Source of the DNA: Delftia acidovorans NBRC 14950
GTDB lineage: Bacteria > Pseudomonadota > Gammaproteobacteria > Burkholderiales > Burkholderiaceae_C
DNA: 32,000 nt
Direction of reading: 5' to 3'
Assembly: GCF_001598795.1 (NCBI RefSeq)
Contig: NZ_BCZP01000005.1
Location: 90,001-122,000 of the forward strand
Below, in pieces: positions 8,373 to 11,068 of this stretch. Within the stretch, counting starts at the first letter, position 1; each line of letters begins with the position of its first letter. Below the pieces are notes generated by a model. The model did no database searches and was not told the DNA's origin. It worked only from the letters and a program-made list of their open reading frames with translations. The position numbers and the translations under genes were made by a program.

Positions 8373-9353
8373 GTGATTGAAGTAATGTCCCGACTAATTA
8401 GACCTGCAGATATTCCGGAAACACTTTGGCATGCCAAAACAACGTGTTTGCATCTTGCCCCGACACTTCGGAGAGCTTGGGAGCACTTGCTACTACACGC
8501 CGGACTCGAAGATAAGGCTCGGCTACCGGTTCCTGAGGGAAGAATCGGCGGCTTGAGTAAGGAAGATACGGACGATCATCTGGCATGGCGCTTCAGTGGG
8601 TCGTCGGCGCGGGTTCAGCTCAGTTTTCTCGATCCAGAGGAAAAACTTACTGAGGTGGCAGATGCGTTTGCAAAAGTCTTTTCTGGTGGAACCGTGTTGC
8701 TTGCAGACCTACCCTGCGGCTCAGGTGCTGCAGCATTGACGTTGCTGGCAAACATTGCTGAGTTGCGGCGCCAAGACCGAATCCCACGTAACCCGCTTAA
8801 CGTCAAGATTGTTGGCGGTGAGTTGTCAGAGTTCGCACGAGGCTATGCCGACCTAGCAACAAAACACATCAAAGATGCGTTGGCCGAACAAGCAATCTGG
8901 GTATCCGCTGAGTTTCTTTCCTGGAATGCATTGGATAAATTTTCTACAGCAGAACTAACTAACCGCCTGACCGTGCTTGGCCAGGAATGTTCAGCCCGCC
9001 TAATAGTTCTGGCCAATTTTTCCGGATTTTTACAGCGCGAGGGAAAATGGAAGGAGGCTCTCCCTCAATTTGAAAACTTATTCCTGCATGGCCGAGCTCA
9101 TAACAGTTTTGTACTCTGGATTGAGCCGCAAACAAACGAGGTGCTTGGCTCTGGGGGATTCTTCAGTAGAGCTATTAATTGGTTTAAAAAACTGTTTTCA
9201 GCACATCACACTAAGGACGAGCAAGATGCTCTAGTTGTTGAGAACCTCGGAAAGAGTGCTGCTGACGTCCAACACCCATTAAAGGATCATCAATTCAAAG
9301 TTCAACTAGTAGTTCAGCGCTTCGATTTACCTTTGAACGGAGCGAAGGCATGA
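8373..9353 (+). CDS. class-I SAM-methyltransferase-fold protein with degenerate catalytic motif IV
   Basis: 326-aa ORF; the start is GTG 8373 or ATG 8385. Motif I is VLLADLPCGSGAAAL (8706-8726 = DLPCGSG). An acidic residue ends beta2 (KIVGGELSEF). Motif-III-like is FLSWNALD. At the position where N6-adenine/gamma-class enzymes carry (D/N)PP(Y/F), the sequence is LIVLANFSGF (NFSGF, 9015-9029). The stop overlaps the RT start (ATGA, 9350-9353). Confidence 0.8.
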   Translation: MIEVMSRLIRPADIPETLWHAKTTCLHLAPTLRRAWEHLLLHAGLEDKARLPVPEGRIGGLSKEDTDDHLAWRFSGSSARVQLSFLDPEEKLTEVADAFAKVFSGGTVLLADLPCGSGAAALTLLANIAELRRQDRIPRNPLNVKIVGGELSEFARGYADLATKHIKDALAEQAIWVSAEFLSWNALDKFSTAELTNRLTVLGQECSARLIVLANFSGFLQREGKWKEALPQFENLFLHGRAHNSFVLWIEPQTNEVLGSGGFFSRAINWFKKLFSAHHTKDEQDALVVENLGKSAADVQHPLKDHQFKVQLVVQRFDLPLNGAKA

Positions 9354-11068
9354 GGCCACAGCTACTCGCACTGCGCACAGCCAATGAGTACCGCACACGT
9401 GACATTATGGCCTACCTTGGGTTGCGCTATTACTTTGCCAATCAGTGCGCACGCAGGGATCGCTGGGCTGAAGAGGTGTCTTCTCATCTTGTGATGAGCG
9501 GCAGCAGTGCTTATTTCGAGTCCCTGCATTTCAAGGATATTCGCTCTGACGGCTTGGTTGGCTACCGCAGCATTTTTGTGCCTGGCCCCAATGAGTCTTA
9601 TGCTGAAGCCGCATTGCTCTCCGAGTGCAGTCGACACGCAGTATTTCGTTCACCCAGCTTTGTCTTTAGCTATCGTTTGGCAGAGGGCGAGGAAACTCAA
9701 GGGGTCTACAAGCCTTACTTCATGGGGTTACAAGAGCGGCAAAAAAAAATTGCCGATGCATGCAAAGCAGGCGCAGGTCAGGTTGTGCGCTATACCGATA
9801 TTAAACGATTTTATCCGAATATATCCTATGAGCTGGCAATTGGTGCTTGGTTGAAGGCATGCGATGCAACTAAAATAGCCACCTTGTACCGTGATTTAGG
9901 TATAAAACTTTTAACTCAACACGCACAGGTATGTCAGACAGCCGCTCATGGCAAGGGATTGCTTACCGGCCCCATGTTCAGTCACCTAATTGCCAACCTT
10001 GTGTTACGCGATGTTGACGAAGCAATGTCTGCGGCCTTCCCAATGCGTTACTTCCGCTATGTGGATGACGTAGTCCTGGTAGGATCAGCAGCAGAGGTTT
10101 CCACAGGCCGGTCGCAATTGGCAGCGATGTTGACAGAGTTAGGGCTTGAATTGCATGAGAACGGCACGGGTAAGGACTTTGAGCTCGCTTCTGATGATTG
10201 GCTGCATGGAGAGGGGGATTTCAGCGGAAAAGACTCATACAACTGGATGCTCTTTGTTCATGACATTAAGCAGTTCCTAATTTCACAGCCATCGTCTCGT
10301 GCCAACCTAGTTAATAGATTTGCTGCAGAGGGATTCAGGATACCGTTGCTGGATTACAGCATGCAAGTCAGTGATGCGAGGTATCAAGAACGATTTTTTA
10401 ACCAATTGCGCCGCTATCCTTGGTTATTAAAGAAAATATTCCGACGGGCTACTCCAAACACGCTTTTGATTTCTGCACAAAACCTTCGGGCTGAATTTTC
10501 AAATAGTTTGTTTAAAATCCTGGACGCCGGCCATGATTTGGATGGTTACGCTCGTAAGAGGGTCGTTACTAAGATTCGTTATTTCGCCGGCAGACTACTC
10601 TACCTAGCCAAAACTGAAGATTTGGCAAAAATTGCAGAGCGGCTGCGGCGATATCCAGAGCTCGCCATGCTTGCGGAAATACTCCACGCAGTCGGCACAC
10701 GAGACGTCACGCAACTTTTGCGATTGGGTAATAATGCGGCCCAATCGGCTGCGCAGCCCCTAAAAATTACTCCCGGCGTAATCACTTGCCAAATCGAATC
10801 TTGGGGTTCCGCAGAACGTAAGAGCTTGGCCATTTTGCGAGCAAACGGTATCAGCGTTGCCGGTCCGGCCGACGATGAACTCAATCGCTTCGCTTTATGG
10901 AACGAGCGCGGGCATGAGCTAATGAGTGCAGGCGATCCCTTCATCAAGGAAATAGCCTGCCTGCACGGGATTTCAGAACACCCCCGCCATCCCGGGATTC
11001 TTGAGACGGCACTGGATCACGGTGAGGAACTTGCCTTCGATGCGACGACGCCGATTGATACCTACTGA
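9350..11068 (+). CDS. reverse transcriptase (stand-alone, defence-type/UG-Abi-like) with ~300-aa helical C-terminal extension
   Basis: 572-aa ORF with GGAG 8 nt upstream. RT motifs:
- 1/2: YRSIFVPGPNESYAEAALL;
- A: VVRYTDIKRFYPNISYE (D150, 9797-9799);
- B: GLLTGPMFSHLIANLVLRDVD (9956-10000);
- C: FRYVDDVVLVG (YVDD, 10058-10069);
- D-like: LGLELHENGTGK.

No maturase/En, nitrilase or primase-like domain is evident. Confidence 0.9.
   Translation: MRPQLLALRTANEYRTRDIMAYLGLRYYFANQCARRDRWAEEVSSHLVMSGSSAYFESLHFKDIRSDGLVGYRSIFVPGPNESYAEAALLSECSRHAVFRSPSFVFSYRLAEGEETQGVYKPYFMGLQERQKKIADACKAGAGQVVRYTDIKRFYPNISYELAIGAWLKACDATKIATLYRDLGIKLLTQHAQVCQTAAHGKGLLTGPMFSHLIANLVLRDVDEAMSAAFPMRYFRYVDDVVLVGSAAEVSTGRSQLAAMLTELGLELHENGTGKDFELASDDWLHGEGDFSGKDSYNWMLFVHDIKQFLISQPSSRANLVNRFAAEGFRIPLLDYSMQVSDARYQERFFNQLRRYPWLLKKIFRRATPNTLLISAQNLRAEFSNSLFKILDAGHDLDGYARKRVVTKIRYFAGRLLYLAKTEDLAKIAERLRRYPELAMLAEILHAVGTRDVTQLLRLGNNAAQSAAQPLKITPGVITCQIESWGSAERKSLAILRANGISVAGPADDELNRFALWNERGHELMSAGDPFIKEIACLHGISEHPRHPGILETALDHGEELAFDATTPIDTY

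Follow-up and report, generated by a model that had tools for sequence, protein, structure and literature searches.

A UG36 reverse transcriptase and its methyltransferase-like neighbour, a predicted two-gene defence module in Delftia acidovorans

The 32,000-nucleotide stretch of Delftia acidovorans DNA analysed here (the window) encodes a reverse transcriptase (RT) that raises three questions: to which family it belongs, whether it acts alone, and how it might prime and template DNA. The initial annotation described a stand-alone RT with an intact catalytic core, which it did not place in a known class. The open reading frame proposed at 9350–11068 stands, running from ATG to TGA on the forward strand and encoding 572 aa. 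PADLOC identifies the product as RT_UG36 by a full-length match (E = 6.3e-207, 687 bits, residues 3–572 against profile positions 2–555 of 557), with the next-best family at ~60 bits. The affinity to UG/Abi defence RTs had been recognized correctly, but the already-named group had been missed. UG36 is reportedly one of two UG/Abi groups left unclassified by Mestre et al., the other being UG37, which is said to correspond to rvt elements. That survey connects UG36 with a methylase gene and predicts a defensive role for it, the association being with an adjacent methylase-domain gene (clusters 169/2186; Mestre et al. 2022, NAR, PMC9226505), and our full-text literature search returned no other UG36 paper. 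More than 500 full-length RT homologues exist, and distant loci (L045, L058 and L072) also encode full-length UG36 enzymes. Within this catalogued but mechanistically unsolved family the locus is nothing out of the ordinary; that the RT and its upstream partner together constitute a UG36 member and a two-gene module is, in our judgement, nearly certain.

The claim of an intact catalytic core holds. Motifs A, B and C are present, and their key residues and K275 are invariant among 43 homologues of 44–87% identity and 91–100% conserved in 62 family members with identities down to 20%. Across those 62 sequences, D150, Y155, Y237–D240 and K275, which occupies the motif D position, are 100% conserved, F154 is 91% conserved, and G207, P208 and H212 of motif B are conserved at 91–96%. 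The AlphaFold2 model of the RT has a pLDDT of 91.6 and a pTM of 0.90. Judged by these residues, the polymerase active site is intact and its steric gate is of the dNTP type.

Table 1. Features of the UG36 locus, in window coordinates
Feature	Position	Strand	Evidence
Leader/promoter region of the UG36 two-gene operon	8206..8384	+	blastn conservation in closest relatives
Methyltransferase-like partner gene, 322 aa	8385..9353	+	synteny, AF2 fold, hhalign to UG35
UG36 reverse transcriptase gene, 572 aa	9350..11068	+	PADLOC RT_UG36, AF2 model
RT motif A YTDIKRFYP, catalytic D150, steric-gate F154/Y155	9791..9817	+	conservation in 62 family members
RT motif B GLLTGPMFSHLIANL, residues 203-217	9956..10000	+	conservation in family
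RT motif C YVDD, residues 237-240, catalytic D239/D240	10058..10069	+	conservation in 62 members
UG36-specific all-helical C-terminal domain, residues 281-551	10190..11002	+	AF2 secondary structure
Flexible C-terminal tail ending in Tyr572, candidate priming residue	11003..11065	+	low pLDDT, Tyr conservation
77-nt element, downstream edge of the shared 2.9-kb unit	11069..11145	+	blastn

The enzyme had been set apart from group II introns, diversity-generating retroelements (DGRs) and Cas1-associated RTs, and all of these exclusions were upheld. An Rfam scan of the whole window returned no family, and therefore no group II intron ribozyme, nor any retron msr/msd. The group II intron RT model TIGR04416 aligns to the RT core only and, at 43.7 bits, stays far below its cut-off of 300; the retron St85 model reaches 30.4 bits where 235 are required, with no structured flank and no Rfam match. 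There is no TR/VR-like repeat pair in the window, whose long repeats are all accounted for by paralogous histidine kinases. Cas1, Avd and maturase/En domains were absent from the RT and its four nearest neighbours (Pfam, PADLOC and NCBIfam) and from nine further window ORFs scanned with Pfam. The broader suggestion of a UG/Abi defence RT with a long helical tail, outside the common RT classes, is borne out.

The same is not true of the claim that the RT is stand-alone. A 322-aa gene lies immediately upstream, its stop codon overlapping the RT start by 4 nt (ATGA); its mechanically called frame begins at a GTG at 8373, and we place its start at the ATG at 8385. Of 80 related loci, 59 have this partner immediately before the RT, a pairing that spans Proteobacteria, Cyanobacteria, Bacteroidota, Planctomycetota, Campylobacterota and CPR, and the adjacency persists across phyla at RT identities down to 20%. 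Neighbours other than the partner are not conserved among the related loci. Because a methyltransferase-like gene is conserved next to the RT, gene order indicates that the enzyme is not stand-alone and forms, together with that gene, a conserved two-gene module. At one locus (L045) the pair has hsdR on one side and hsdM on the other, the gaps being 6 and -4 nt, and at two others (L016 and L040) the upstream gene abuts the partner gene. Four cyanobacterial loci carry a DEDD 3'-5' exonuclease gene 12–27 nt after the RT, an arrangement reminiscent of DRT4 and DRT6, whose products are controlled by 3'-5' exonucleases of the host (PMC12783706).

The AlphaFold2 model of the partner (pLDDT 93.8) has a 7-strand Rossmann, or SAM-methyltransferase, fold, and a Foldseek search with it against the PDB and viral models recovered only generic class I SAM methyltransferases (E about 1e-4). 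Conservation is complete (100%) at G112 and G114, the glycines of motif I, at the acidic residue 146, and at E247 and P248; comparison with the N-terminal methylase domain of UG35 by hhalign gives a probability of 96.4 and an E-value of 1e-9. From the predicted fold, we infer that the partner is a SAM-binding, methyltransferase-like protein. Pfam, NCBIfam and PDB sequence searches found no match to any of the 41 members of the partner alignment, and an exhaustive profile search with that alignment (389 clusters in total) recovered only its own family in the top 150 matches, and therefore did not link it to any methyltransferase of characterised function. Because not every member keeps motif IV (NFSGF), the partner may only bind SAM. 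A Dot1-like reading of NFSGF was considered and dropped, N211 being replaced by Ala in distant members.

The C-terminal half of the RT, roughly 290 aa, was expected to be helical and rich in Leu, Ala and Arg, and it is both: residues 281–551 are purely helical in the AlphaFold2 model, with about 17 helices, and the composition is 12.5% L, 10.8% A and 8.3% R. The more specific proposal of a repeat-like tail of the AbiK/Abi-P2 kind stood in part. The best PDB matches of the RT in Foldseek are the class 1 enzymes DRT6, DRT4, Abi-P2, AbiA and AbiK over 560–650 aligned columns, and yet the TM-scores against class 1 enzymes are only 0.34–0.43 despite the whole-chain alignment. With all values under 0.5, the domain resembles alphaRep, the HEAT-like helical repeat domain found in place of the thumb in class 1 enzymes, only weakly. 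Aligned by itself to UG35 with hhalign, the tail domain gives a marginal result (P 0.003 against 0.056 for reversed controls; Prob 10.7%), its sole PADLOC sequence match is RT_UG36 itself, and no internal sequence repeats rise above reversed-sequence controls. The likeness to AbiK and Abi-P2 tails is, on this evidence, no more than suggested. The RT core fits class 1 and class 2 profiles equally well in PADLOC (class 1 UG35, 59.7 bits; class 2 UG17, 59.3 bits; Drt3a, 46.5 bits) and could belong to either class.

The chain ends in a tail that closes with AFDATTPIDTY and whose last 20 residues are modelled at a pLDDT of 56–58. A Tyr falls within the last six residues in 48 of the 62 family members, against an expectation of 25%, and Ser or Thr occupies this stretch in the remaining 14. 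DRT9, at Y496/Y498 (PMC12483538), and DRT10 (PMC12632851) provide precedents for priming from a C-terminal tail, and tail conservation makes Tyr572 a candidate protein-priming residue. Both precedents are RNA-templated enzymes. Y22, Y108 and Y234 are further conserved candidates. The distance of Y123 from YxDD matches that of Y125 in DRT4, but Y123 ranks behind the tail because it is only 75% conserved; a phmmer search of the Tyr123 segment against the PDB, intended to map the DRT4 priming Tyr125, gave no usable match.

We looked for a template RNA in both flanks and within the genes. Within the leader are an AT-rich box, TATATTTGTTAC, and, near 8324–8348, a short hairpin. The leader is conserved, at 72–79%, only among the closest relatives (L001, L002 and L081/82) and not in more distant loci; its folding shows no excess over shuffled sequence (z -0.23), and its consensus fold is weak (-9.7 kcal/mol), with one compensatory change in the small hairpin. 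Since excess folding, an Rfam match and distant conservation are all lacking, we read the leader as a promoter/5'UTR and not as a noncoding RNA. On the downstream side, blastn homology with L001 ends at 11145. The 77-nt element bounded by this point also comes immediately after the RT in L086, is shifted some 880 nt away in L002, and shows no excess folding (z -0.01). Searches of both flanks with nhmmer and blastn across 57–59 loci found conservation in the closest clade only. Third-position/synonymous variation in four sequences dips mildly at the partner-RT junction, and with 8–11 sequences no synonymous-site constraint was found along either gene beyond the last 20 codons of the partner, where a dip is as expected for the ribosome-binding site of the RT. 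Several loci have the pair packed into type I restriction-modification (R-M) operons with no intergenic room. By these searches, no noncoding RNA dedicated to the system can be detected at the locus. The tests used would miss a template supplied by a host RNA or by the mRNA of the operon itself.

The surroundings of the pair are those of a probable defence island. In the window it is adjoined by a PIN-TPR-GreABC gene and a HEPN-like gene, and GC content falls to 48–50% at the locus; an integrase lies beside the UG36 block in another strain, and related UG36 loci lie inside type I R-M operons. A tblastn search with the RT against PLSDB (plasmids) and INPHARED (phages) returned no match. From this context we infer that the module resides within a horizontally acquired, low-GC defence island, and we consider an anti-phage function likely. 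The 2.9-kb unit travels as a discrete block with conserved edges.

AbiK, Abi-P2, AbiA, DRT4 and DRT6 are class 1 protein-primed, template-independent single-stranded DNA polymerases, and the mechanism that we propose for UG36 follows them in part. A translationally coupled operon would produce the SAM-binding partner and the 572-aa RT, and the latter would be a DNA polymerase that uses its own chain as primer, most likely through the hydroxyl group of the conserved Tyr (or Ser/Thr) with which the flexible C-terminal tail ends. Single-stranded DNA would be made without a dedicated RNA template, as in class 1 AbiK, Abi-P2, DRT4 and DRT6. The partner, in complex with the RT, would methylate the product or the bound nucleotide, or would serve as sensor or effector; phage infection would shift the balance, so that a toxic product accumulates and abortive infection follows. 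We give this reading of a two-gene anti-phage module, taken as a whole, an even chance of being right. Its parts differ in strength. On the comparative analysis, we lean slightly towards protein-primed DNA synthesis by the UG36 RT, whereas synthesis that is untemplated or protein-templated rather than RNA-templated is a possibility that falls somewhat short of even. The fullest version, a split methylase-polymerase in which priming from the C-terminal Tyr/Ser yields untemplated or protein-templated DNA while the partner methylates the product or its precursor or couples synthesis to SAM sensing, is decidedly speculative.

The principal rival keeps protein priming and restores an RNA template, as in DRT9 and DRT10: a short template would lie in the 180-nt leader, the operon mRNA or a host RNA, and the C-terminal Tyr would prime the synthesis of repetitive or homopolymeric DNA. 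It draws on the tail, which is the same kind of priming site as in those two enzymes (Y496/Y498 in DRT9), on UG17 (DRT10) as a joint-best non-self match of the core, which in L072 extends beyond the core, and on the leader of the closest clade with its one compensated hairpin. Against these points stand the loss of any conserved noncoding flank beyond relatives of about 75% identity, the weak consensus fold and unexceptional z-score of the leader, the loci with no room between genes, the lack of synonymous constraint or an Rfam match, and the homology of the partner, which ties the pair to class 1 UG35. We consider this rival unlikely. That the RT is instead a single-gene enzyme of the AbiK/Abi-P2 type, its upstream gene unrelated to function, would fit the single-gene class 1 systems DRT4, DRT6 and AbiK being its best structural matches; the 4-nt overlap, the adjacency kept across phyla to 20% RT identity, the fusion of homologous domains in one UG35 chain and the same methylase association in the survey of Mestre et al. 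(PMC9226505) all speak against it and leave it very improbable.

It is also conceivable that the pair is not an immune system and serves a mobile island or a housekeeping role, for example nucleic acid modification for element maintenance. The movement of the 2.9-kb unit as a discrete block with conserved edges and the island integrase in another strain would suit such a role; the residence of pairs in type I R-M operons and beside PIN-TPR-GreABC and HEPN-like genes, the defensive function of all characterised UG/Abi relatives and the absence of the pair from the PLSDB and INPHARED searches would not, and we hold this explanation to be improbable. Had accessory parts gone unnoticed, the RT might still come from a retron, a group II intron or a DGR, or be CRISPR-associated, but the weak similarity of the RT core to TIGR04416 and retron St85 is outweighed by scores far below both cut-offs and by the lack of a ribozyme, msr/msd, TR/VR repeat, Cas1, Avd or maturase domain, and the chance of such an identity is negligible.

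To our knowledge, every solved DRT group has revealed a new way of writing DNA, whether de novo genes, random single-stranded DNA, poly-dA, telomere-like repeats or protein-templated repeats. A group in which the polymerase is obligatorily paired with a SAM-dependent methyltransferase fold could plausibly yield another new chemistry, and the present locus is a clean, compact UG36 example, a 2.9-kb unit with its native leader. If the split methylase-polymerase reading were true, this would be the first defence RT with a chemically modified DNA output, and C-terminal-tail priming, so far confined to the RNA-templated DRT9 and DRT10, would extend to an enzyme free of an RNA template. Handles on the mechanism are provided by D239/D240, by Y572 or the whole tail, and by G112/G114/E146 of the partner, together with the prediction of RNA-independence and the natural three-gene variants that carry their own exonuclease.

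Compared with known systems, the locus differs in nothing from the published UG36 group (PMC9226505), of which it is itself a member: the full-length profile match, the length class of about 570–595 aa, the association with a methylase gene and the defence-island context are common to both. To the published description we add the confident, all-helical model of the C-terminal domain, the conserved C-terminal Tyr/Ser tail, the absence of a detectable noncoding RNA and the DEDD exonuclease genes, which are lineage-specific and occur in some relatives. With DRT9 (UG28) and DRT10 (UG17), UG36 shares a Tyr/Ser in a flexible C-terminal tail, and by profile its RT core is as similar to UG17 as to UG35. 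However, DRT9 and DRT10, like the other class 2 enzymes DRT2 and DRT3a, use as template a conserved structured noncoding RNA encoded beside the RT, of which none is detectable at the UG36 locus, and neither DRT9 nor DRT10 has the 290-aa helical domain or a methyltransferase partner. The class 1 enzymes AbiK, Abi-P2, AbiA, DRT4 (UG15) and DRT6 (UG12), which give the best PDB matches as whole-chain alignments, have in common with UG36 an RT followed by a large helical domain, which in UG36 too would take the place of a conventional thumb, the lack of a detected noncoding RNA and a candidate priming Tyr. Class 1 enzymes assemble as homo-oligomers, either trimers or hexamers, and priming on a conserved Tyr leaves them covalently joined to DNA. 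In class 1 that Tyr is in the fingers, palm or linker, whereas the UG36 candidate is at the C-terminus; class 1 systems are single-gene except Drt3b, and none has a methyltransferase partner.

A further comparison is with the class 1 methylase-RT fusions UG35 and UG25. Unlike these, the UG36 locus has no UvrD-like helicase partner, and its methylase is a separate polypeptide, whereas theirs is fused to the RT in one chain. With the PADLOC UG35 profile, the match to UG36 is confined to the RT core, and C-terminal homology is marginal when that domain is taken alone (P 0.003). The methylase domains are homologous (hhalign E 1e-9), and so are the RTs (hhalign E 7e-18, 385 columns). The RT alignment continues to UG36 residue 472, inside the helical C-terminal region, and owes this extension to the use of a 34-sequence UG35 alignment, as a single UG35 sequence aligned only the RT core. 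UG35 and UG36 also have the same domain order of methyltransferase, RT and helical domain. By profile-profile comparison, the two genes of the UG36 pair are homologous to the single-chain methylase-RT fusions of UG35.

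The reverse transcriptase (RT) gene lies where the initial annotation had placed it, at 9350-11068 (+), and runs from ATG to TGA to encode 572 aa. Over its whole length the product fits the PADLOC profile RT_UG36 (E 6.3e-207, 687 bits; residues 3-572 against profile positions 2-555 of 557), the second-best family scored about 60 bits over the RT core only, and the N-terminal 131 and C-terminal 283 residues matched no PADLOC family other than RT_UG36. These profile matches identify the RT as a member of UG36. Mestre et al. 2022 (PMC9226505) introduced the group, linked it to methylase genes and left it unclassified within the UG/Abi RTs; the same study considered a common ancestor with the methylase-RT fusions UG25 and UG35 possible, found no evidence for a C-terminal alphaRep domain and predicted a defence role by looking at individual loci (PMC9226505). 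A full-text literature search on the UG36 RT group returned no other paper, and UG36 is absent from recent overviews of DRT mechanisms. Both the group with its partner gene and a likely role in defence have been in print since 2022, and the locus as a genome feature is no surprise for a specialist.

The catalytic motifs had been described as intact, and their residues are indeed invariant in an alignment of 43 homologues (44-87% identity): Y148, D150, F154 and Y155 of motif A, G207, P208, H212 and N216 of motif B, Y237-V238-D239-D240 of motif C, and K275. D150, Y155, Y237-D240 and K275 are 100% conserved in 62 UG36 family members (to 20% identity). This conservation points firmly to an intact polymerase. 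The aromatic pair F154/Y155 follows the motif A aspartate at the steric gate position known from RTs, which speaks for synthesis of DNA by the enzyme. An AlphaFold2 model of high confidence (pLDDT 91.6, pTM 0.90) agrees with the earlier description of a helical, Leu/Ala/Arg-rich C-terminal half (L 12.5%, A 10.8%, R 8.3%), with residues 281-551 modelled as helices only and followed by a low-confidence tail of about 20 residues.

The description of the RT as a stand-alone enzyme did not hold. Among 80 related loci, sampled at one genome per species, 59 carry a homologue of the upstream gene directly 5' of the RT, overlapping it or a few bases away; in the window the RT start codon and the partner stop overlap by 4 nt (ATGA). 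The exceptions are mostly contigs ending at the RT, or RTs of other groups. The pairing is seen in Proteobacteria, Cyanobacteria, Bacteroidota, Verrucomicrobiota, Planctomycetota, Campylobacterota and candidate-phyla-radiation genomes and is kept down to 20% RT identity, the distant paired RTs being full-length UG36 by profile match. None of the remaining window neighbours is conserved alongside the pair in the 80 loci. Different gene callers assign 266, 288 or 322 aa to an identical partner sequence (window 8373-8385; L090-L093, loci of other assemblies); because homologues are mostly 322 aa and the N terminus is conserved, we favour the ATG at 8385 (322 aa) over the mechanical GTG at 8373. 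A metagenomic protein of 663 aa (P0401) joins partner residues 1-245 to RT_UG36 profile positions 150-555, and seems to have arisen by a deletion spanning the junction of the two genes, not to be a functional fusion.

The partner sequence had no match in Pfam, NCBIfam or PDB, and it belongs to a small, isolated family, with 389 clusters at 50% identity in a set of 1.84 billion representatives. Its AlphaFold2 model (pLDDT 93.8) adopts a seven-stranded Rossmann fold, for which Foldseek returned class I SAM-dependent methyltransferases only, at modest scores (E ~1e-4, TM 0.3-0.4), including an Rsm22-like mitoribosome factor, MrsA, DOT1L/DOT1A, BCDIN3D and MnmM/MnmC; matches in a viral library were viral cap and DNA methylases. 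Across 58 partner sequences, the glycine loop after strand 1 (D-L-P-C-G-S-G-A) conserves G112 and G114 in 100% and D108 in 96%, position 146 at the end of strand 2 is acidic (E or D) in all 58, E247-P248 after strand 5 is 100% conserved, and G55, G56, R76 and R128 do not vary either. Strand 4 is followed by a less constant motif (N-F-S-G-F), in which N211 is replaced by Ala in distant clades. We conclude from model and conservation that the partner is predicted to bind SAM and is probably a methyltransferase. Profile-profile comparison aligns it with the N-terminal methylase domain of UG35 (Prob 96.4, E 1e-9), using 34 aligned members of the UG35 identified in locus L077 (PADLOC E 7e-296). Because of this homology, UG36 and its partner are the two-polypeptide counterpart of what UG35 carries in a single chain; that genes split in one lineage are fused elsewhere is a classical argument for physical and functional partnership. 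Together, synteny and homology to the fused UG35 domain mark this methyltransferase-fold protein as an obligate partner.

GC content drops to 48-50% at the pair, compared with 62-70% in the flanks, and the window forms part of chromosome CP066006.1. The two genes preceding it move with it as one block in other assemblies (L090-L093); in the larger product, the N-terminus weakly resembles an Mrr-like nuclease, and GreA/B-C matches weakly as well. UG36 loci in other species lack both genes, which suggests that the two form a neighbouring defence system in their own right. The four-gene block recurs in other assemblies; in L090, which has an identical RT, it is followed by genes for an S24 peptidase, a SprT-like protein and a phage-type integrase, which replace the Bro-N, Tsi6 and MCP genes of the window. 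This downstream integrase suggests that the island is carried by an integrative element. The RT had no match among the plasmids of PLSDB or the phages of INPHARED. Genes related to phages flank the island on both sides, with the amidase and DUF1353 genes upstream and the Bro-N and Tsi6-like genes downstream. Chemotaxis and two-component genes of an ordinary kind are also found downstream, and the only long direct repeats in the window (48-100 nt, 76-79% identical, ~4.2 kb apart) come from two paralogous kinases.

Coordinates of features in the window and in related loci
Feature	Locus	Positions	Strand	Details
N-acetylmuramoyl-L-alanine amidase, phage-type	window	227-1105	-	upstream
DUF1353 gene, phage-type	window	1176-1868	-	upstream
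PIN-TPR-GreABC protein	window	3132-7373		upstream; 1413 aa; PF20698 E 9e-19
200-aa protein	window	7465-8067		upstream; weak Swt1/RiboL-PSP HEPN matches
Partner (MT)	window	8385-9353	+	
RT	window	9350-11068	+	
77-nt element	window	11069-11145		directly 3' of RT stop
77-nt element	L001	7720-7796		directly 3' of RT stop
77-nt element	L086	1477-1544		directly 3' of RT stop
77-nt element	L002	3953-4023; 3326-3375		displaced ~880 nt; second copy partial
Bro-N protein	window	11532-12485		downstream
Tsi6-like ORF	window	12791-13075	-	downstream; 94 aa; Pfam call from L091
Hybrid histidine kinases	window	16810-20190; 21304-23691	-	paralogous
S24 peptidase, SprT-like and integrase region after the block (identical RT)	L090	4990-7560		
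R-M operon	L045	2555-9329		hsdR-MT-RT-hsdM
R-M operon	L016	1976-7713		hsdR-MT-RT
R-M operon	L040	2258-7701		hsdM-hsdS-MT-RT
DEDD exonuclease	L007	7755-8435		PF00929 E 3.5e-15
DEDD exonuclease	L008	7745-8425		PF00929 E 3.5e-15
DEDD exonuclease	L010	7773-8483		PF00929 E 3.5e-15
DEDD exonuclease	L011	7770-8477		PF00929 E 3.5e-15

Elsewhere the pair repeatedly sits inside type I R-M operons with gaps of -4 to 6 nt, and in four cyanobacterial loci the RT is followed at 12-27 nt by a third gene, encoding a DEDD 3'-5' exonuclease (RNase T/DnaQ-like; 226-236 aa, 71-81% DNA identity among the four). The UG36 pair thus occupies a defence-island setting, and its context fits a defence module. By analogy with DRT4 and DRT6, whose products are kept in check by exonucleases (PMC12783706), it would also fit a free-3'-end product restrained in this way.

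We propose that the RT, in complex with its partner, would make DNA primed on its own C-terminal Tyr, most likely without a dedicated RNA template; that the partner would draw on SAM for modifying the product, or for sensing or carrying out a response; and that infection would turn this activity into growth arrest. An RT working alone is contradicted by the synteny, with a partner homologue adjoining it in most sampled loci across phyla. The main rival, an RNA-templated mode resembling DRT9/DRT10 with an unrecognised RNA, we consider unlikely. Rfam, searched near the locus up to E 1 and over the whole window at gathering thresholds, gave no match of any kind, including the intron ribozyme and the msr/msd that the initial annotation had named as arguing against its reading. 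Homology with the closest relative (Rhodoferax, L001) spans 8206-11145, comprising a 179-nt leader, both genes and a 77-nt trailer. Leader conservation (72-79%) is limited to the clade of L001, L002 and L081/82 and is not found in relatives with RT identity <=72%. Neither leader (z -0.23) nor trailer (z -0.01) shows more folding than shuffled sequence, and the leader consensus fold of four sequences is weak (-9.7 kcal/mol; one short hairpin with a single compensatory change). In L045 the pair is enclosed by hsdR and hsdM at distances of 6 and -4 nt, hsdR overlaps the partner gene in L016, and hsdS ends 4 nt before it in L040, which therefore leaves no space for an ncRNA gene in the style of DRT2/9/10. 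Synonymous variation is uniform along both genes (0.31-0.61 per 20-codon window; 8-11 sequences), except for a dip to 0.27 over the final 20 codons of the partner gene, which hold the RT ribosome-binding site. These analyses indicate that the UG36 locus lacks a recognisable ncRNA; a host RNA or the operon mRNA could still serve as template.

The trailer element, which has the core GAATGTCTCAGATCAGCCTG and a 6-bp hairpin, delimits the shared 2.9-kb unit and may be a cassette boundary or attachment-like site.

We compared the helical domain with those of other RTs. The best Foldseek match of the RT model in PDB was hexameric DRT6 (E 2.8e-9, TM 0.43, 608 columns), and DRT2, DRT4/UG15 (TM 0.41), Abi-P2, AbiA and AbiK were also top-ranked. 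Class 1 enzymes align over 560-650 columns and retron, DGR, DRT2 and DRT9 RTs over ~250-315 (TM 0.28-0.33), and therefore the tail adds to the structural match. For the AbiK/Abi-P2-like tail proposed earlier, the class 1 alignments are suggestive at most: the tail has no internal sequence repeats above controls, and a common fold of the UG36 and class 1 tails is not proven because TM is always < 0.5 and RMSD 13-21 A. Profile-profile results are likewise mixed. With UG35, hhalign extends to UG36 residue 472 (E 7e-18, 385 columns) and pairs GYxRKRxIPKLRYxAGRLLYL with the UG35 motif RxLxRRxRFAxNRLxxLGF; when only the tails are aligned the score is 29.9 (P 0.003, Prob 10.7%), compared with 20.9 (P 0.056) when controls are reversed sequences.

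The last 20 residues of the RT, modelled at low confidence, vary in sequence and keep a conserved plan in 62 members: first an acidic patch with E559 (96% conserved), then a short amphipathic segment reading LAFDA or LEALS, then a linker rich in Gly and Ser and, at the extreme end, an aromatic hydroxyl residue (DTY, SSYF, SEYRS or GGYFS). Tyr occurs within the last six residues of 48 of the 62 RTs, against 25% expected from composition, and the remaining 14 have Ser or Thr there. Across the alignment, a C-terminal hydroxyl tail is evidently conserved; Y22, Y108 and Y234 are other well-conserved tyrosines. The locus is a compact, sharply bounded representative of UG36, with an unusual pairing of polymerase and methyltransferase. 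Priming occurs in the fingers of AbiK (Y44) and Abi-P2 (Y61), in the linker of AbiA (Y298 or Y303) and in the palm of DRT4 (Y125) (PMC12783706); UG36 Y123 is spaced from the catalytic aspartates as is DRT4 Y125, but is conserved in just 75%. DRT9 is primed from Y496/Y498 in its C-terminal tail (PMC12483538) and DRT10 from a C-terminal Ser or Tyr (PMC12632851), and the UG36 tail, with its C-terminal Tyr/Ser, resembles these and is a candidate primer of the DRT9/DRT10 pattern.
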